Below, piece by piece: positions 34,967 through 43,343 of a stretch of 64,000 nt of DNA (the first letter of the stretch is position 1; each line of letters opens with the position of its first letter). The stretch is taken from assembly GCA_018830005.1 (NCBI GenBank), contig JAHJTE010000001.1, positions 642,287-706,286 on the forward strand, written 5' to 3'. The stretch comes from Candidatus Omnitrophota bacterium. GTDB lineage: Bacteria; Omnitrophota; Gorgyraeia; JAHJTE01. Both the position numbers and the translations under genes were made by a program. The notes under the pieces are model-generated. The model saw only the letters and a list, made by a program, of their open reading frames with translations, did not search any database and was not told the DNA's origin.

Positions 34967-35437
34967 ATGAATGAAAAATTGATTAAGCTACTTGCAACTT
35001 TTTTCGGGGCAGGCCTTCTTCCTCTGATTGAGGGTACCTGGGGTTCATTGGCCGGGATTATAGTTTATTTCTTATTTTTAAAGGGAAATAGCATTATTCA
35101 TTTATGCTTTTTCTTGATAATCACTGTTGTTGGTTTTGCGGTATGTGCTCCGGCTGAAAGGATTTTTAAAAAAAAGGATGCCGGAGCTATTGTTATTGAT
35201 GAAGTAGCAGGTATTTCACTTTCACTTCTTTTTATCCCTCCTAAACCATTATATATATTAATAGGTTTTTTTCTCTTTCGCTTATATGATACGATTAAGC
35301 CTCCTCCCACGCATTCTATTGAAAAACTTTCCGGCTCATACGGGATAATGGGTGATGATTTAATTGCAGGCGTTTATACCAACATCTCTCTGCATATAAT
35401 AATCTTTGTTTTGAGTTTTTCAGGAGTGTTATCCTAG
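34967..35437 (+). CDS. pgpA: Phosphatidylglycerophosphatase A
   Basis: FGAGLLP...GTWGSLAG...IDEVAG pattern of PgpA; 156 aa. Confidence 0.8.
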   Translation: MNEKLIKLLATFFGAGLLPLIEGTWGSLAGIIVYFLFLKGNSIIHLCFFLIITVVGFAVCAPAERIFKKKDAGAIVIDEVAGISLSLLFIPPKPLYILIGFFLFRLYDTIKPPPTHSIEKLSGSYGIMGDDLIAGVYTNISLHIIIFVLSFSGVLS

Positions 35438-35992
35438 TTTGATAGTGGAGAGGACTTCATAATGCGGGCCAGCTGATGAAAGCGCACTTTTAAAAAGGCT
35501 CACCGCCTCAGTCATCATTTCTTTCTGGCAAATATCGGTTTTCTCAAACACACCAGATAATTTTTCCCGGTTGCGATTACTCCTTACCCTTCCTAATGTA
35601 ATGTGAGATTTAAACGTTCGTTTCTCTTTGGGAAATTTTAAACTCACCAAGGCTGCCTCAGTTGAGGCGGCTAGTTTTTCTAGGGCGTTATCGGCTGATA
35701 CTGCATTAATCCAGATTACTCGAGGATTAGCAATCTTAGGAAATATCCCTAGGCTATTGAGCTTAAGAGAAAATGGCTTAAAGTAAGACAGACAGCCGAT
35801 GAGTGCATCTTTAATTTTCTCTATTTTTTCCTGCTGGACGTTCCCTAGGAATTTTAAGGTTATATGCAGATTTTCAGGTTTCACCCATTTTACATCAGCC
35901 TCACTTGTCTTTAAAATATCCTGAATGCGCAAGATCTCATCCTTGATCTCCGCCTCTAATTCTACTGCAATAAAAGCCCTTATCGTATGCAT
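35429..35992 (-). CDS. thpR: RNA 2',3'-cyclic phosphodiesterase (2H family, ThpR/LigT)
   Basis: Two HxT/S motifs (HITLKFLG and HITLGRV); 187 aa. Confidence 0.85.
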   Translation of the reverse strand: MHTIRAFIAVELEAEIKDEILRIQDILKTSEADVKWVKPENLHITLKFLGNVQQEKIEKIKDALIGCLSYFKPFSLKLNSLGIFPKIANPRVIWINAVSADNALEKLAASTEAALVSLKFPKEKRTFKSHITLGRVRSNRNREKLSGVFEKTDICQKEMMTEAVSLFKSALSSAGPHYEVLSTIKLG

Positions 35993-36483
35993 TCTTTTAT
36001 CAGATTTAATGCGGCAGTCTTTGCCTCCCGTCGTATCTTTTGACGATTACCCTTGAAATTAAACTTACGACAAATTATTCCTTTCGGGGATGAAACCGCA
36101 ATATAAACCAAGCCTACAGGCTTATGGGTCTTTGCGCCTGTAGGGCCGGCAACACCGGTAATGCCTACGCCTAAGTTAGTTTTTGCCAGATTTCTGATGT
36201 TTTCAGCCATTGCCATAGCAACGTCTTTGCTTACTGCACCTTTAGAATTTATGAGAGAGCGTTTGATTTTCAATATCTCTATTTTGGCCTTATTGCTGTA
36301 GGCAACAATTCCCATTACAAAAAATTTAGAACTTCCTGAGATATCGGTTAGAAGGCTAGCGAGTAGCCCTCCCGTGCATGATTCGCAAGTTGCGATAGTG
36401 AGTTTTTTCTTGATAAGCAGATTATATAGCTGTAGCTGGGCTTTCATACAATCCATTATAGAGACTTTTAATACTATTGACAA
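35980..36483 (-). CDS. pncC: CinA C-terminal domain protein (nicotinamide-nucleotide amidohydrolase PncC-like)
   Basis: TIATCESCTGGLLA...GVGITGVAGP signature of the CinA C-terminal domain; 167 aa. Confidence 0.8.
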   Translation of the reverse strand: MSIVLKVSIMDCMKAQLQLYNLLIKKKLTIATCESCTGGLLASLLTDISGSSKFFVMGIVAYSNKAKIEILKIKRSLINSKGAVSKDVAMAMAENIRNLAKTNLGVGITGVAGPTGAKTHKPVGLVYIAVSSPKGIICRKFNFKGNRQKIRREAKTAALNLIKECIR

Positions 36484-36504
36484 TAGGATAAAATTTGCTA
36501 TAAT
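36477..36504 (+). promoter_or_regulatory. Consensus sigma70-type promoter of the rib leader (TTGACA-N16-TATAAT)
   Basis: Perfect hexamers counted from sequence; -35 overlaps the pncC start codon on the opposite strand. Confidence 0.55.
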
Positions 36505-36511
36505 AAGTTTC

Positions 36512-36655
36512 TAATCTTCGGGGAGAGGTGTGATTCCTTACCGGCGGTTAAGCCCGCGAATCTCCACCGTTTTGTTTCGATAAAACGAAACAGTGGGGAT
36601 GGATCTGGTAAGATTCCAGAGCCGATGGTAAAAGTCCAGATGAGAGAAGATTAAG
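36512..36655 (+). promoter_or_regulatory. FMN riboswitch (RFN element)
   Basis: CTTCGGGGAGAGGTG.GATTCC..ACCGGCGGT.AAGCCCGCGA ... GATTCCAGAGCCGATGGTAAAAGTCCAGATGAGAGAAGAT matches the conserved RFN cores; lies in the ribBA leader. Confidence 0.85.
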
Positions 36656-36661
36656 TGTATA

Positions 36662-36690
36662 CCCGAAGATTCCTCTTCGGGTTTTTTTAT
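36662..36690 (+). terminator. Intrinsic terminator / riboswitch expression platform (CCCGAAGA-TTCC-TCTTCGGG followed by a T-run)
   Basis: 8-bp GC-rich stem, 4-nt loop, 7 T's, immediately before the ribBA start. Confidence 0.75.
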
Positions 36691-36692
36691 TT

Positions 36693-37907
36693 ATGTTTAA
36701 TTCCATATCAGAGATAATCAGAGACCTTAAGGCCGGCAAGATGGCCATAGTAGTTGATGATGAAGGCCGCGAAAACGAAGGCGATCTGCTTATAGCTGCA
36801 CAGAAGGTTAAGTCAGCAGATATCAATTTTATGGCTAGATTTGGACGAGGTCTAATTTGTGTTCCAATGTCTAAGGAAAGATCGGATTATTTAGGTCTTC
36901 ATCCTATGCTGGATAAGGCATACGCTAGGCCTTTGTTCAGAGATAGATTTAATACGGCCTGGATGATCTCTGTGGATGCGCGCAGCGGTATTACTACAGG
37001 CATCTCTGCTTATGATCGTGCAAAGACAATCAAGATTTTGGCTGATAAGCAAACAGGACTTCAGGATTTAGTGCGGCCTGGTCATATCTTTCCCTTGGTA
37101 GCTCAGGAGGGAGGGGTATTAGTCAGGGCAGGTCATACTGAGGCCTGTATTGATTTATTGAAACTTGCTAAGATGCGGCCGACGGGAGTAATCTGTGAGA
37201 TAATGAATGCAGACGGTTCCATGGCCAGGACCAAAGATTTAATTAAATTTTCCAAGAAATTTAAATTAAAAATCTGTACGATCGCAAGTCTAATAGAATA
37301 CAGAAGAAAAAAAGAGTCGTTGATTAAGAGAATAACCAAGGTCAAGCTACCAACAGAATTCGGTAGATTTAAATTATGGATATACGAATCCAGTATTGAT
37401 AAATCGCATCATCTTGCTTTGATCAAAGGGCGTATTGATAGCAAAAAGACTATCCTAGTAAGAGTGCATTCTCAGTGTTTGACGGGAGATGTCTTTTCAT
37501 CTTTACGTTGCGATTGCGGGGCGCAACTTAGAAAGGCATTAGAAATGATTTCGCGCCATCGGGAAGGCATACTTTTATATATGCATCAGGAGGGTCGTGG
37601 TATAGGCCTGCTTAACAAATTGCACGCCTATGCACTTCAGGATAAGGGCATGGATACCGTAGAGGCTAATAAGGCCTTAGGATTCGCGCCTGACCTGCGT
37701 GATTACGGTATTGGTGCACAGATCCTTTTTGATTTGGGTGTAAGAAAAATAAGACTGCTTACTAATAATCCCAAAAAGATTATAGGCCTTGAGGGTTACG
37801 GGCTAGAAGTGAAAGAGAGAGTGTCAATTGAGATTCCAGCCTCAAAGCTAAATCTAGGATACCTGCGTACGAAGAAAAAGAAATTAGGTCATATGTTGAA
37901 CGTTTAA
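36693..37907 (+). CDS. ribBA: Bifunctional 3,4-dihydroxy-2-butanone-4-phosphate synthase / GTP cyclohydrolase II
   Basis: RibB N-terminal half ([11 protein letters not shown]) and RibA C-terminal half with zinc cysteines (SQCLTGD...CDCG). Confidence 0.95.
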
Positions 37908-37925
37908 AAAAAGGAGGGAAGAAGA

Positions 37926-38390
37926 ATGGTAAAAGTAATATCAGGATCATTGTTGGCAAAGGGTAAGAAGTTTGCTATTGTAGCTTCGCGCTTTAATGAG
38001 TTTATAACTGCAAAGTTAATAGAGGGAGCAATTGACACATTAACTCGTCATGAAGTCCTAGATAATGACATCTCTTTAGTTTGGGTACCGGGTTCGTTTG
38101 AGATACCTACTGTAGTTAGCAAGTTACTAAAGTCAAAAAAGTTTGATGCGGTTATCTGCTTAGGGACTTTAATACGCGGCTCAACTAGTCATTTTGAGTA
38201 TATTGCGAGTCAGCTTTCCCGCGGCATATCCCAGCTTTCAGTTGACTCTGGAATTCCAGTAATCTTTGGAGTTATTACTGCTGATACAATTGAGCAGTCG
38301 ATAGAGCGAGCTGGTACTAAAGAAGGCAACAGGGGCCGTGATGCTGCAGTTAGTGCAATAGAGATGGTAAACGTAACAGAGAAGATATAA
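37926..38390 (+). CDS. ribH: 6,7-dimethyl-8-ribityllumazine synthase
   Basis: 154 aa; [14 protein letters not shown] lumazine synthase signature. Confidence 0.93.
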
Positions 38391-38461
38391 GGAAATCACA
38401 AAATAATCGCAAAGGTTCAAAAGATTTTTGTGTTTTTGCGGTTATAAATTATTTTTTAGCT

Positions 38462-38896
38462 ATGCGTAAACGTACAAAGGCAAGGGAATTAGCCCTGCAG
38501 GTTCTTTTCCAGATTGATATAACTGGTGAGGATCCTGATAGCGCCCTTAAGGTTTTCCTGCAAAATCAGATACGGCCTATAGAGGCAAGTGTAAGCGAAT
38601 TCTGCCAGTGTCTAATTCAAGGTACAACTTCTAATATGAAGAAAATTGATGAGGTTGTAAGTCGTTATGCAATGAATTGGCTCATCAAACGCATGGCTGT
38701 TATCGATCGCAATATCTTGCGAATGGCAACATACGAGATTATTTATTTATCTGATATACCGGTGAATGTGTCAATAAATGAGGCCGTTGATTTAGCTAAA
38801 AAATTCGGTGATATTGATTCAGGAAAATTTGTCAACGGCATATTAGATAAGATCTCTAAATCAGAAAAGGTTAATAAAAACTCCGCTAAAGATTAA
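38462..38896 (+). CDS. nusB: Transcription antitermination factor NusB
   Basis: RTKARELALQVLFQ N-terminus typical of NusB; 144 aa. Confidence 0.9.
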   Translation: MRKRTKARELALQVLFQIDITGEDPDSALKVFLQNQIRPIEASVSEFCQCLIQGTTSNMKKIDEVVSRYAMNWLIKRMAVIDRNILRMATYEIIYLSDIPVNVSINEAVDLAKKFGDIDSGKFVNGILDKISKSEKVNKNSAKD

Positions 38897-39007
38897 ATAG
38901 CAGGGCTTGTATTTTATTCTAAGAGTTTGAACACTGGATTCTGTTTATGTCCGTTAAGGAGTCAAGGAGCCAAAGATATGTGGCGGACTATTTCTAATGA
39001 GGTAATA

Positions 39008-39835
39008 ATGCCCGAAGCTAAGTTTGCAGATTTACACCTACATACCTATTATTCAGATGGCACATTCTCTCCCCAAGAGTTAATGCATAGAGCCTTAGAA
39101 TCCGGCATCAGCTGCATTTCAATTAATGATCATGATACAGTCAGTGCCTTAGTACCTGCCTTTTCCCAGAGGCCTGAGGATTTAGAATTAATACCAGGGA
39201 TTGAAGTATCCTGTGATTGGCAGGATAAAGAAGTCCACCTCTTGGGATATTACATTGATTATGAAAATAAAGAATTATTGTCTAAGCTAGAGGAAATTGG
39301 CAAACAACGCATTGAGAGGATTCGTATTATGGTAGATAGATTGAAGCAGATGAAGGTTGATATACCTGTCGAGGAAGTATTCGGCCTAGCTAAATATGGC
39401 ACAGTCGGAAGGCTGCATTTAGCCAGAGTCCTTTTAAAAAGAAATATAGTCTCAAACATCCGCGAGGCCTTTATAAGATTTATAGGCGAAGGTTGCCCTG
39501 CATATGTTTCAAGATTCAGGATGAGCGTGAAAGAAGCGATAGAGATGATTGCTAACTACGGTGGCATTCCAGTTCTGGCCCATCCTTTCACTGTTGGCGG
39601 CGATGATTTTATTGAAGGATTAGTACCCTTTGGCCTTAAAGGTATAGAGGTTTATTATCCTGAGCATTCTCGAGGCCAGGTTGAGCATTATAAGGCTCTT
39701 AGCGAACATCTTGGTCTTGTGACAACGGGTGGTTCTGACTGTCATGGTGAGGTTAAAAAGAATATTAAGGTAGGCTTAGTTCGCATTCCCTACGAGATAG
39801 TAAATAGACTAAAAAAAATAAAAGAAGCCCTCTAA
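39008..39835 (+). CDS. PHP-domain phosphoesterase (TrpH/YciV-like)
   Basis: DLHLHTYYSDG, INDHDT, VLAHP and GGSDCHG metal-binding motifs of the PHP family; start moved to ATG 39008 (GAGGT RBS). Confidence 0.8.
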   Translation: MPEAKFADLHLHTYYSDGTFSPQELMHRALESGISCISINDHDTVSALVPAFSQRPEDLELIPGIEVSCDWQDKEVHLLGYYIDYENKELLSKLEEIGKQRIERIRIMVDRLKQMKVDIPVEEVFGLAKYGTVGRLHLARVLLKRNIVSNIREAFIRFIGEGCPAYVSRFRMSVKEAIEMIANYGGIPVLAHPFTVGGDDFIEGLVPFGLKGIEVYYPEHSRGQVEHYKALSEHLGLVTTGGSDCHGEVKKNIKVGLVRIPYEIVNRLKKIKEAL

Positions 39836-39839
39836 AAGA

Positions 39840-40937
39840 ATGAGAAAATCGCAGCATGAATATTTTACGAGAAAGGCATTAGAGCTTGCCATAAAGGCCA
39901 AAGGCAAGACTTCCCCAAACCCTCTTGTGGGTGCTGTGGTAGTAAAAAATAATCGTATAATAGGTAGCGGATATCATAAAAAGGCTGGCTTGGTTCATGC
40001 TGAAGTTGAGGCGCTTAGACAAGCTGGCAGGAGAGCTCAAGGAAGCACCCTCTATGTTAGCCTAGAGCCTTGCTGTTTTTTTGGAAGAACTCCACCTTGT
40101 ACAGATGCAATTATAAATTCCGGAATAAAAAAGGTTATTATTGGAATGTGTGATCCGAATCCAAAGAACAATGGAAGAGGGATTAAGATTCTGCGCCATG
40201 AAGGAATATCAGTTAAGGAAGGTTATTTGCAAAATGAGTTAAAAAAGATAAACGAGCATTTTATAAAATATATTTCTAAAAAAATTCCCTTTGTTACGAT
40301 AAAGGTTGGTCAGAGTCTTGATGGTAAGATTGCGACTAAGACAGGTGATTCTGAGTGGATAACCTCTTATTCAGCCAGAAGTTATGCTAAGAGTCTGCGT
40401 GCTGACTACGACGCAATAATGCTAGGAATAAATACTGTAATTAATGATGATCCAGAATTGGCAGCGCCAGAGAAGAAGCGATTTTTTAAAATTGTTGTTG
40501 ATCCGCATTTAAGGATACCTTTAAAATCACAAATCATACGCAAAAATAGCAAATCTGTTATTATTGCCACAGGACTAAATAGTTCTACCTATAAAAAAAA
40601 GGCATTGGAAAAATTGGGCGTTAAGATTATAAAGGTACCAAGCAGGCTTAAGAATTTAAATCTAAGATATCTATTGAGCAAGTTAGCCAGCTTAGAGATA
40701 ACCAGTGTTTTAGTTGAAGGCGGCGGCAGAATGATTGGTTCGCTCCTGGAACAGCATCTTGTAGATAAGGTTCTTTTTTTTATCGCACCAAAGATTATTG
40801 GCGGTGAATCTGCAATAAGTTCAGTGATGGGTAAAGGGATTAGGAAGATAAAGAATGCTATTAAGCTCGATAATATTAAACTGAAACAGATTGGCAGTGA
40901 TTATTTGTTTGAGGCCTATATTAAGTCCATAGCATAA
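39840..40937 (+). CDS. ribD: Bifunctional riboflavin biosynthesis deaminase/reductase RibD
   Basis: CMP/dCMP-type deaminase zinc motifs (HAEVEAL, PCxxC as LEPCCFFGRTPPC) plus C-terminal reductase domain. Confidence 0.93.
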   Translation: MRKSQHEYFTRKALELAIKAKGKTSPNPLVGAVVVKNNRIIGSGYHKKAGLVHAEVEALRQAGRRAQGSTLYVSLEPCCFFGRTPPCTDAIINSGIKKVIIGMCDPNPKNNGRGIKILRHEGISVKEGYLQNELKKINEHFIKYISKKIPFVTIKVGQSLDGKIATKTGDSEWITSYSARSYAKSLRADYDAIMLGINTVINDDPELAAPEKKRFFKIVVDPHLRIPLKSQIIRKNSKSVIIATGLNSSTYKKKALEKLGVKIIKVPSRLKNLNLRYLLSKLASLEITSVLVEGGGRMIGSLLEQHLVDKVLFFIAPKIIGGESAISSVMGKGIRKIKNAIKLDNIKLKQIGSDYLFEAYIKSIA

Positions 40938-40953
40938 ATTTAGGATTTTAGTT

Positions 40954-41523
40954 ATGTTCACAGGTATTATAGAAGAATTAGGAAAGGTTAAGGCACTAGA
41001 AAGAAGAGGCAGACTTTTTCGTCTTGGAATCGAAGCAGAAAAGATCACCCAAGATATTAAAATCGGTGATAGCATCTCTGTAAATGGCGTATGCCTGACC
41101 TTGGTTGCTGTAGAGAATAATTTAATTAGCTTTGATGTTCTCAATGAAACTGTACAGAGGAGCAATATTGGAGGTTTAAGAACGCTTGAGAATGTTAATC
41201 TAGAGCGCGCCTTAAAAGTCGGCGACAGACTCAGCGGTCATTTTGTGAATGGTCACATTGATTGTATGGGTATTATCCGTAAAAAGACCTATAAAGACAA
41301 CAACCTCTGTTATGAGATTAGTTTTCCTAGCGAGTTTTCAAGTTACGCGGTAGAGAAAGGCTCAATTGCTGTTGATGGTATAAGCCTAACAATTTCACAG
41401 ATACGCGGTGGTTCTTTTAGTGTAAATGTCATACCTCACACCCTCGTGAATACCACTCTTAAATTCAAAGGCCCTTCCAGCAAAGTCAATCTCGAATTTG
41501 ATATCCTTCTGAAACGCAAATAA
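40954..41523 (+). CDS. ribE: Riboflavin synthase alpha subunit
   Basis: MFTGIIEELGKV N-terminus and internal repeat (GDSISVNGVCLT / GSIAVDGISLT). Confidence 0.93.
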   Translation: MFTGIIEELGKVKALERRGRLFRLGIEAEKITQDIKIGDSISVNGVCLTLVAVENNLISFDVLNETVQRSNIGGLRTLENVNLERALKVGDRLSGHFVNGHIDCMGIIRKKTYKDNNLCYEISFPSEFSSYAVEKGSIAVDGISLTISQIRGGSFSVNVIPHTLVNTTLKFKGPSSKVNLEFDILLKRK

Positions 41524-41557
41524 TCACAGATAATGCATCTTTAACACATTGCCTTTA

Positions 41558-41586
41558 TTGCCTTTAGCTTTATTTTCTGCTATACT
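41558..41586 (+). promoter_or_regulatory. Putative sigma70-type promoter of tRNA-Pro (TTGCCT-N17-TATACT)
   Basis: Hexamers and spacer counted from sequence; -10 ends about 22 nt before the mature tRNA 5' end. Confidence 0.45.
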
Positions 41587-41608
41587 AAAGCGTTAAACAG
41601 TAATATTC

Positions 41609-41683
41609 CGGGGAGTAGCGCAGTTTGGCTAGCGCGCTTGCTTCGGGAGCAAGAGGTCGACGGTTCAAGTCCGTCCTCCCCGA
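41609..41683 (+). tRNA. tRNA-Pro (anticodon CGG), 3' CCA not encoded
   Basis: Cloverleaf folded by hand: acceptor CGGGGAG/CTCCCCG, D-stem GCGC, anticodon stem CTTGC/GCAAG with loop TTCGGGA, T-arm GACGG-TTCAAGT-CCGTC, discriminator A. Confidence 0.85.
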
Positions 41684-41702
41684 TTTCTCAAAGCACGTTA
41701 TT

Positions 41703-41978
41703 ATGGCTAAAAGGAGAATTCATATATATTTTTCAGGAAGGGTGCAGGGGGTAGGTTTTCGCTTCACTGCTGAACGCCTAGCTCGTAATTTAAAGATAGC
41801 TGGCTGGGCAAAGAATCTCTTTGATGGCCAGGTAGAGGTGGTGGCTGAGGCCGAGGAAAACACCTTAAATGATTTCTTGCAGCAGATGAAGGATAATTTC
41901 CATAATTATATTGAAGATATTGAGATTGATTGGAAAGATAATTGTGAAGGCCTAGTTGATTTTCAAATAAGGTTTTAA
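41703..41978 (+). CDS. acyP: Acylphosphatase
   Basis: 91 aa; ...[13 protein letters not shown]...[14 protein letters not shown]... matches acylphosphatase motifs; start placed at the ATG after the tRNA, not the ORF-track start that overlaps it. Confidence 0.8.
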
Positions 41979-41985
41979 TTAAAAT

Positions 41986-42360
41986 ATGAAGATAGACCTG
42001 AATAAAATTACCGCAGAATGTAATGGTTGCCGTAGCGGCGCATGCTGTACTGATGGGGTTGAGCTAAGCAAACAGGAGATGGCAAGAATTCAAGCTTTCA
42101 ATCCCAATCTAAAGAAACCTTGGTTTAGAAAAACACCCAAGATTCATGAGTCAGCGCCAGGCTTTGAGTACGAAACAAGGATACGTCAAGGCAGATGTGT
42201 ATTTTTATCTAGCGATAGACTTTGTGCGATATATCCTGTAAGGCCTTCTAACTGTAGGGAATTCCCGCTTGAGGACGGCGAGATAGCTGAATTTTATAAA
42301 TTATTGTGCGACAAAGCTCCAAAATTCATCAATTCAAAAAATAAACGAGGGCTAGTATGA
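41986..42360 (+). CDS. YkgJ-family cysteine-cluster protein (CxxCxxCC putative metal-chelating domain)
   Basis: CNGCRSGACC near N-terminus plus downstream Cys residues; 124 aa. Confidence 0.6.
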   Translation: MKIDLNKITAECNGCRSGACCTDGVELSKQEMARIQAFNPNLKKPWFRKTPKIHESAPGFEYETRIRQGRCVFLSSDRLCAIYPVRPSNCREFPLEDGEIAEFYKLLCDKAPKFINSKNKRGLV

Positions 42361-43343
42361 TTGTATTAATTATTCTTATCTTGAGCATTCTTATCTTATC
42401 AGGCTTATGTTCGATGACCGAGGCTGCTATTTTGAGTTTGCCATTTGCACGTGCTAGAATTTTTCGCGAGGAAAAGAGAAAAGGCGCAGATGATCTCCTT
42501 TTTGTTAAAGAGCACATCCATACAGCGATTGCAACAGTTGTTATTTTAAATAACAGCATTAATATTATTGGTGCTATTTTTGTTGGTCAGAAAGTTGCTG
42601 GTCTATTTGGCAATCAATGGCTGGGGATCACCTCAGCTGTCTTTACCTTTGCCATTATTATAGTGGCTGAAATTATCCCCAAGACTATTGGCGAGACATA
42701 TAAGACGAGGATTTCGCTCTCAAGTGCTAAGATTCTGAAGATCGTTATGCATATATTTCGACCTCTGGTATCTGCTTTGATCTTTATGATAAGACCCTTG
42801 AAAAAGAAAAAAGGACAATTTAGGATAACAGAACAAGAGATAAAGATGATGTTAAGGCTTGGTAAGGATATGGGTACAGTAGAGGTTGACGAAGAAGCCC
42901 TTATCAATAGAGTTTTTAAATTAAATGATTTAACTGCCTTGCAAATGATGAAGCCGATTGAGCAAATCTACTCTTTGCCATATGGGATGACACTTTCAGA
43001 ATTAAAAGATAAAATCATAAATTCTCCTTATAGTCGGATTGCTGTATATAAAAAGGATATCTCTGATATAGTTGGTATTGTCCAGCAAAGAATACTCCTG
43101 CGTGAGATTGCAAAAGATAATTATGGGGTATTGGTTGATGAGTTCATTGCTATGCCTGTTTTTATTTACGAGAATGAAAAGGCAGATACCCTGCTTGAAA
43201 AATTTCGCTCCTATCATCAGCACCTTTTTATTGTTAAGAGCATGAAGGAGGCTAATATTGGAATTATTACAATGGAAGATTGCCTAGAGGAGCTTTTTGG
43301 TGAAATTTATGATGAGAAGGACTTATCGCGCAGGAGCAGATAG
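42357..43343 (+). CDS. DUF21-CBS membrane protein (CNNM/HlyC-CorC family, lacking the C-terminal CorC_HlyC domain)
   Basis: N-terminal multi-pass hydrophobic region followed by CBS-pair-like region; ends at 328 aa. Confidence 0.65.
   Translation: MIVLIILILSILILSGLCSMTEAAILSLPFARARIFREEKRKGADDLLFVKEHIHTAIATVVILNNSINIIGAIFVGQKVAGLFGNQWLGITSAVFTFAIIIVAEIIPKTIGETYKTRISLSSAKILKIVMHIFRPLVSALIFMIRPLKKKKGQFRITEQEIKMMLRLGKDMGTVEVDEEALINRVFKLNDLTALQMMKPIEQIYSLPYGMTLSELKDKIINSPYSRIAVYKKDISDIVGIVQQRILLREIAKDNYGVLVDEFIAMPVFIYENEKADTLLEKFRSYHQHLFIVKSMKEANIGIITMEDCLEELFGEIYDEKDLSRRSR

Follow-up and report, generated by a model that had tools for sequence, protein, structure and literature searches.

Can the gene of a core transcription factor sit behind a metabolite riboswitch? 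The question is raised by a stretch of 64 000 nucleotides (nt; hereafter the window) from an uncultured Candidatus Omnitrophota bacterium represented by a metagenome-assembled genome (MAG; GenBank assembly GCA_018830005.1, contig JAHJTE010000001.1, positions 642 287–706 286), in which a flavin mononucleotide (FMN) riboswitch precedes a run of riboflavin (rib) genes that also holds nusB, encoding the transcription antitermination factor NusB, and a gene for a PHP-domain phosphoesterase (hereafter PHP). A sequence-only reading of the window had proposed that this arrangement would render NusB expression FMN-dependent unless an internal promoter exists. We compared the locus with 80 loci from other genomes. 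That nusB is co-transcribed from the promoter under riboswitch control emerges as the best-supported reading, and one that we consider quite probable, because the gene order is conserved, the gene junctions overlap, internal promoter scores lie at background and no internal terminator is found. As a riboswitch the element is unremarkable; the unusual part is the gene set that it appears to control.

Layout and conservation of the six-gene unit

The unit consists of six genes, all on the + strand, and ends at 41523 with the stop codon of ribE. Gene identities were assigned with NCBIfam curated cut-offs and Pfam. Every gene of the unit except PHP passes its NCBIfam cut-off (given after the bit score below), and these matches bear out the order ribBA-ribH-nusB-PHP-ribD-ribE, with nusB inside the unit, that had been read from the letters.

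36693–37907, + strand, ribBA, bifunctional DHBP synthase/GTP cyclohydrolase II (NF006803, 587.3 bits against 569; PF00926 and PF00925)
37926–38390, + strand, ribH, 6,7-dimethyl-8-ribityllumazine synthase (TIGR00114, 177.9 bits against 84.6; AGGAGG ribosome-binding site)
38462–38896, + strand, nusB, transcription antitermination factor NusB (TIGR01951, 142.4 bits against 88.35; PF01029, 136 bits)
39008–39835, + strand, PHP-domain phosphoesterase of the TrpH/YciV (RNase AM/3',5'-bisphosphate nucleotidase) family (PF02811)
39840–40937, + strand, ribD, bifunctional deaminase/reductase (TIGR00326, 362 bits against 156.35), beginning 4 nt past the PHP stop codon
40954–41523, + strand, ribE, riboflavin synthase, the final gene of the unit (NF006767, 221.4 bits against 155)

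The gaps between these genes measure 18, 71, 111, 4 and 16 nt, where the nusB–PHP gap of 111 nt is counted to ATG 39008, the most likely start of PHP. An earlier placement of this start at TTG 38927 is less likely, as the N-terminally extended open reading frame finds no support in the gene call or in the homologues, which begin MKFADLHLHT, and a GAGG motif lies 7 nt upstream of ATG 39008.

The loci used for comparison were retrieved with a profile built from 26 PHP homologues, and nearly all of them are labeled as Omnitrophota or as binned Planctomycetes-like genomes. Gene order was read by tblastn with the six window proteins. The full order ribBA-ribH-nusB-PHP-ribD-ribE is present in 55 of the 80 loci, and a further 20 carry a contiguous in-order subset, mostly truncated by the end of a contig. 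The median gaps are 53 nt (ribBA–ribH), 15 nt (ribH–nusB), −4 nt (nusB–PHP), −4 nt (PHP–ribD) and 2.5 nt (ribD–ribE), with gaps of at most 20 nt at the ribH–nusB junction in 41 of 66 loci and at the nusB–PHP junction in 66 of 76. Judged from these loci, the six-gene layout is the usual one in the phylum Omnitrophota. With junctions this short or overlapping, transcription in most genomes reaches the pathway genes ribD and ribE only through nusB and PHP.

Promoters were scored with a simple sigma-70 hexamer score out of 12, in which a value of at least 10 was taken as near-consensus, over the 120 nt upstream of each internal gene. In 47 of 49 loci the aptamer is preceded by a near-consensus promoter, whose −10 element ends at a median distance of 5 nt from it. 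Within the unit, scores of at least 10 were reached before ribH in one of 65 loci, nusB in five of 74, PHP in one of 79, ribD in none of 72 and ribE in one of 66, compared with none of 209 coding controls; a consensus scan of this kind speaks to near-consensus promoters, while weak or alternative-sigma promoters and terminator read-through lie beyond its reach. The best internal scores in the window (7–8.5, and 7.5 upstream of nusB) equal the coding background. No internal terminator-like site of note, and no canonical terminator, was found in the window unit.

The FMN dependence of NusB proposed by the sequence-only reading thus gains comparative support, in that the conserved order, the overlapping start and stop codons at nusB-PHP-ribD (median gaps of −4 nt) and the background internal scores favor the riboswitch promoter; the co-transcription on which that dependence turns is itself something we infer from sequence. 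Because nusB and PHP are sandwiched between riboflavin genes and translationally coupled in most relatives, both are likely to be carried on the riboswitch transcript.

The leader and its predicted switch

The control region upstream of ribBA contains four elements:

36477–36504, + strand, sigma-70-type promoter TTGACA-N16-(TG)TATAAT (12/12 match, with an extended −10 TG)
36510–36655, + strand, FMN riboswitch aptamer (RFN element, RF00050), identified by covariance model
36514–36522, + strand, 5' strand of the P1 helix (AUCUUCGGG), with 36662–36670 as its alternative partner in a 9 bp anti-terminator
36661–36692, + strand, intrinsic terminator, with a stem at 36661–36682 (9 bp, five of them G–C, loop TTCC) and a T-rich tail at 36683–36692

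Three of these had been described beforehand, namely the TTGACA-N16-TATAAT promoter, an RFN aptamer at about 36512–36655 and a hairpin with a TTCC loop and a T-run directly before ribBA, and all three were recovered at these positions. The promoter is the sole 12/12 match within 35900–42500, and transcription is predicted to start at about 36510–36512, the first bases of the aptamer. The covariance scan that had been recommended for the aptamer gave 107.6 bits with RF00050, above the gathering score of 66.2 (E = 4.7e-24; model positions 1–138 of 138), and the aptamer is by this measure an ordinary member of the family. Its 3' end lies 37 nt before ribBA. The terminator hairpin, ACCCGAAGA-TTCC-TCTTCGGGT, has a predicted stability of −13.7 kcal/mol (z = −4.9) and is followed by a tract that amounts to seven consecutive U's when the last base of the stem is included. 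The T-rich tail directly adjoins the ATG of ribBA at 36693. No Shine–Dalgarno sequence is visible before ribBA, in contrast to the strong AGGAGG of ribH, and ribosomes may depend on the A/U-rich leader to translate ribBA. Since the tail abuts the start codon and a Shine–Dalgarno sequence is not seen, the terminator hairpin may hinder initiation of ribBA translation as well.

The 5' strand of P1, AUCUUCGGG, is invariant and perfectly complementary to the 5' arm of the terminator at 36662–36670, and the resulting 9 bp duplex has a predicted energy of −14.9 kcal/mol. The minimum free energy structure of the leader (36510–36715) combines the closed aptamer with the terminator at −65.8 kcal/mol, compared with −59.6 kcal/mol when the anti-terminator is enforced. 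These structures suggest an FMN OFF switch of the classical kind, which acts by termination. The sigma-70 promoter would initiate at the first aptamer bases. With FMN bound, P1 would close and sequester AUCUUCGGG, the CCCGAAGA...UCUUCGGG hairpin would form and RNA polymerase would stop at the U-tract. At low FMN, the 5' strand of P1 would be free to pair with the 5' arm of the terminator as the anti-terminator, and the polymerase would read into the six-gene operon. NusB and the PHP enzyme would then most likely be made from the riboswitch-controlled transcript and be repressible by FMN, with a basal supply of both presumably provided by read-through of the terminator. Taken as a whole, this proposal of an FMN-dependent termination switch in front of a six-gene operon that includes an RNase AM-like PHP enzyme appears likely to us.

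Aptamers in the other loci were sought with Rfam RF00050 and then with a clade-specific covariance model, R1, built from the aptamers that Rfam had found; presence was counted only among the 52 loci whose upstream DNA exceeds 450 nt. The Rfam model detected an aptamer in seven of 16 short loci. With the clade-specific model, 49 of the 52 loci were found to have an aptamer ahead of ribBA, and 51 of 52 leaders share the CCCGAAGA/TCTTCGGG hairpin with its T-run. Over 54 aptamer matches, 95.6% of the cells are paired, compared with 35–50% in slid controls, a figure that comes from an alignment fitted to the model and hence somewhat favors structure. Compensatory changes, with both sides altered, occur in 23 of 31 aptamer pairs.

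Three loci (L004, L031 and L069) that had been missed at the Rfam gathering score were recovered by model R1; their apparent lack of an aptamer was a false negative, since variable loops in them have gained or lost long segments. Some Omnitrophota aptamers below that score (L004:3935–4279 and L031:384–652) span 270–345 nt in total through huge insertions in variable loops. Two adjacent model matches of 24.5 and 40.7 bits at L030:7316–7780 may stem from a second aptamer, in tandem or as a degenerate duplicate. In L044, L061 and L079 no aptamer was detected even in the permissive mode of Rfam. The leader of L079 (5200–5577) places about 360 nt between a TTGACA-N17-TATATT promoter and ribBA, and in it a unit of about 45 nt (...GGGGTATTTAGATGACGGTTAACCCCCGAAAATGCTCTGGCATTTGCTA...) is repeated in tandem, with three copies or more.

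The PHP protein and competing explanations

The best PDB matches of the PHP protein are 7UG9 (Escherichia coli RNase AM), 9ETK, 3E0F and 2YB1 (Cv1693), with profile E values of 1e-40 to 1e-46. Thirteen residues are invariant in the 26 homologues, H10, H12, D17, H42, E66, H77, H192, D244 and H246 together with R101, R104, R135 and F155, and they align with H13, H15, D20, H45, E72, H83, H198, D255 and H257 and with R107, R110, R141 and F161 of RNase AM. In that enzyme, H13, D20, H45, E72, H83, H198, D255 and H257 are metal ligands and R107, R110, R141 and F161 form the 5'-phosphate pocket (PMC9410882); H15, the counterpart of H12, is absent from the published ligand list and belongs to the same HxH motif. 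This correspondence makes a 5'-phosphate-dependent phosphoesterase akin to RNase AM, either a pAp phosphatase or a 5'–3' exoribonuclease, the most likely identity of PHP. Three observations count against so close an assignment: Arg201 of RNase AM has no equivalent in the window protein, which has T195 there, and PHP falls short of the curated cut-offs both for the RNase RNM equivalog NF047791 (158.1 bits against 375) and for the Cv1693-like 3',5'-nucleoside bisphosphate phosphatases of NF041577 (167.7 bits against 400). With its scores below both equivalog cut-offs, PHP is placed by these profiles in the TrpH family, within a subfamily of its own.

The history of the unit can be traced through loci in which it is incomplete. 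The adjacency of nusB and PHP is kept where ribH or ribBA is missing (L074, L076–L078, L055 and L081). In two of these, both Omnitrophota (L055:5422–6534 and L081:1624–2727), nusB-PHP-ribD-ribE directly follows a gene with DUF362 and 4Fe–4S ferredoxin domains, and there is neither ribBA-ribH nor an aptamer. The Verrucomicrobiota loci L076–L078 and a MAG with an acidobacterial label (L074) have nusB-PHP-ftsY, and in L076 and L078 ribD(-ribE) comes next. Because nusB-PHP-ribD-ribE or related forms stand alone in L055, L081 and Verrucomicrobiota, the Omnitrophota operon reads as a fusion, in which a module of FMN leader, ribBA and ribH was united with a nusB-PHP-(ribD-ribE) block of greater age. 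Maturation of 5S, 16S and 23S rRNA at their 5' ends is a known task of RNase AM (PMC7261194); given this role, and since nusB is the only constant neighbor of PHP, the pair fits a shared function in the synthesis and maturation of rRNA, and a partnership of PHP with NusB in these processes is more plausible than a riboflavin function.

The long gaps that flank nusB in the window need separate description. The ribH–nusB gap contains one structured element:

38403–38445, + strand, A/U-rich hairpin (−15 kcal/mol, z = −3.45; none of 200 shuffles equally stable)

Its sequence is unique in the window and among the loci. As a canonical terminator it was rejected, the U-run starting about 7 nt past the stem, and it may be a stabilizer, a processing site or a partial or weak attenuator. 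The nusB–PHP gap gives no fold signal (z = 0.24). Searching 38300–39100 with Rfam in E-value mode yielded no credible second structured RNA or known RNA family, and the gap sequences do not form a repeat family in the window or the loci. Autoregulation by NusB through boxA, which has been proposed for Pseudomonas ribH-nusB, was likewise dismissed, as the pattern GYTCTTTAANA with at most one mismatch has 24 matches in the window, with 24 expected, and none within 36477–41523. In other loci (L020, L025, L026, L028, L002, L022 and L031), long ribH–nusB or ribBA–ribH gaps carry very stable palindromes with z down to −11, composed in part of short repeated units such as CGTTAA, with kin copies in related genomes (L020/L025 and L026/L028) and a REP/MITE-like appearance.

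The explanation that bears most directly on NusB is an internal promoter, located in the 3' end of ribH or in the 71 nt or 111 nt gap, which would drive nusB-PHP-ribD-ribE constitutively and leave only ribBA-ribH under tight riboswitch control, so that NusB would be independent of FMN. We consider it unlikely, while recognizing that several observations lean towards it and weigh against co-transcription. The two window gaps are outliers relative to the medians of the loci and give extra room for a weak or non-consensus promoter, and the first of them contains the significant structure described above. In L036–L038 an identical TTGAAA-N16-TATAAT lies 36–44 nt before nusB and is probably a clade-specific internal promoter; because these loci share a conserved element of this kind, internal promoters would seem to arise within the operon family. 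The occurrence of nusB-PHP-ribD-ribE apart from the riboswitch module points the same way, as do surveys which argue that nusB and FMN-riboswitch control tend toward mutual exclusion (PMC5312566). On the other hand, the best scores upstream of both nusB and PHP in the window (7.5) are those of coding sequence, whereas the real promoters of the phylum are evidently near consensus; the junctions of most relatives, at 0–20 nt or overlapping, leave no intergenic room; and where other loci do have long gaps, these mostly hold strong palindromes rather than promoter-like sequence, the nusB–PHP gap of the window being without a fold signal. A further explanation takes the gene order as a neutral historical accident in which high read-through makes all six genes effectively constitutive and the riboswitch merely trims their expression. 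It agrees with the retention of the six-gene order in L044, L061 and L079, the first with a perfect TTGACA-N17-TATAAT promoter directly before ribBA, so that the operon can work without FMN control; because these three loci keep the order without an aptamer, riboswitch control is dispensable. We nevertheless hold this explanation to be very improbable. The terminator is strong, and about 50 divergent genomes keep the aptamer, the P1-complementary terminator arm and the U-tract, with compensatory substitutions, a retention that argues for sustained selection for a working switch.

The remaining alternative concerns PHP, which could be the ARAPDP phosphatase of the riboflavin pathway; the operon would then encode the complete pathway, with nusB as the sole unrelated gene. 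In about 70 loci PHP directly precedes ribD, usually with translational coupling between the two, it is found near ribD/ribE even in Verrucomicrobiota (L076 and L078), and it falls below both equivalog cut-offs of its closest characterized relatives. The phosphatase has moreover been recruited from differing families, HAD in E. coli, Bacillus subtilis and plants and a histidine family in Aquifex (PMC12051542). Yet the invariant Arg/Arg/Arg/Phe nucleotide pocket fits a bisphosphate or a 5'-phosphorylated RNA and not a monophosphate ribityl compound, and thus argues against a simple ARAPDP phosphatase; it is nusB that is the constant neighbor of PHP, with ftsY between PHP and ribD in Verrucomicrobiota and no ribD in L074 and L077; and no ARAPDP phosphatase of the PHP family was found in the literature searched. 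We regard this assignment as improbable; if true, it would constitute a third independent solution to the long-missing step of the pathway. E. coli RNase AM selectively strips FAD caps, and not NAD caps, from RNA, releasing intact FAD (PMC9410882). A broader flavin connection, in which PHP has a flavin job (as ARAPDP phosphatase or as a flavin-linked RNA enzyme) and/or the FMN pool serves as a proxy for growth that co-regulates NusB and the RNase AM-like enzyme, as factors of ribosome biogenesis, with cofactor synthesis, seems to us doubtful. We retain co-transcription of nusB and an RNase AM-like PHP gene from the riboswitch promoter as the preferred reading.

Neighborhood and comparison with known systems

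Upstream of the rib promoter, pgpA (34967–35437) lies about 1.2 kb away on the same strand, and it is found 1–4 kb upstream in about 45 related loci; in the window two minus-strand genes, ligT-like and cinA-like, stand between pgpA and the rib operon. A divergent promoter, TTGTCA-N17-TATAAT (11/12), occupies 36483–36455 on the minus strand, its −35 element overlapping that of the rib promoter. The ATG of the minus-strand cinA/pncC-like gene, at 36447, is only 8 nt past the divergent −10 element, which suggests a leaderless or near-leaderless mRNA. Downstream, a tRNA-Pro(CGG) gene (41609–41683) begins 85 nt past ribE with no terminator between them, and transcription of the rib operon may read through into it. 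It is preceded by a promoter-like TTGCCT-N17-TATACT (TG) at 41558–41586. A tRNA gene follows ribE at a like position in L009, L012, L013, L020, L052 and L072.

The leader resembles that of the B. subtilis ribDEAHT operon in its RF00050 aptamer, in its OFF logic, which sets the 5' strand of P1 against a terminator arm followed by a U-tract, and in riboflavin feedback through a single promoter. It differs in what follows: the B. subtilis order is ribD-ribE-ribBA-ribH, whereas the window has ribBA-ribH first and ribD-ribE last, with nusB and PHP embedded between them and no visible Shine–Dalgarno sequence before ribBA.

The succession of ribH and nusB, and the proximity of pgpA, recall the proteobacterial cluster nrdR-ribD-ribE-ribBA-ribH-nusB-thiL-pgpA of E. 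coli, Vibrio cholerae and Pseudomonas. Adjacency of ribH and nusB is well known from Proteobacteria (PMC5312566; PMC5725501), and in V. cholerae the two genes are co-transcribed according to RT-PCR (PMC5312566). Unlike the window, the proteobacterial cluster has no FMN riboswitch and no PHP gene after nusB. In pseudomonads boxA precedes ribH-nusB (PMC5725501), an element of which no example was found in the window operon. The PHP protein shares with RNase AM (YciV/TrpH; 7UG9) and with Cv1693 of Chromobacterium violaceum (2YB1) the fold family, the trinuclear-metal ligands and the Arg/Arg/Arg/Phe pocket; its identity to them is moderate, and a position after nusB and before ribD is not known for those enzymes. 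Through its genomic context, the conserved nusB–PHP pair gives a new hint at what enzymes of the TrpH/RNase AM family do, and PHP is also a candidate, albeit an improbable one, for the ARAPDP phosphatase, which varies between lineages.

A survey of Omnitrophota genomes mentions riboflavin biosynthesis as present, with nothing further (PMC10066038), and no prior description of an Omnitrophota riboswitch–nusB operon was found in the literature searched. Among 651 transcription units with an FMN riboswitch, Cisternas et al. recorded five that contain nusB and not one with nrdR, and proposed that riboswitch control is avoided where global regulators share the operon, since such regulators ought not to depend on flavin levels (PMC5312566). 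Read from gene order and leader sequence, the Omnitrophota arrangement is a phylum-wide counter-example to this negative correlation between riboswitch and nusB. If the reading is correct, a core transcription factor is expressed in an FMN-dependent manner in Omnitrophota, which would tolerate or exploit this, and their rib operon offers a testable counter-example on the matter of which genes can sit behind metabolite riboswitches.

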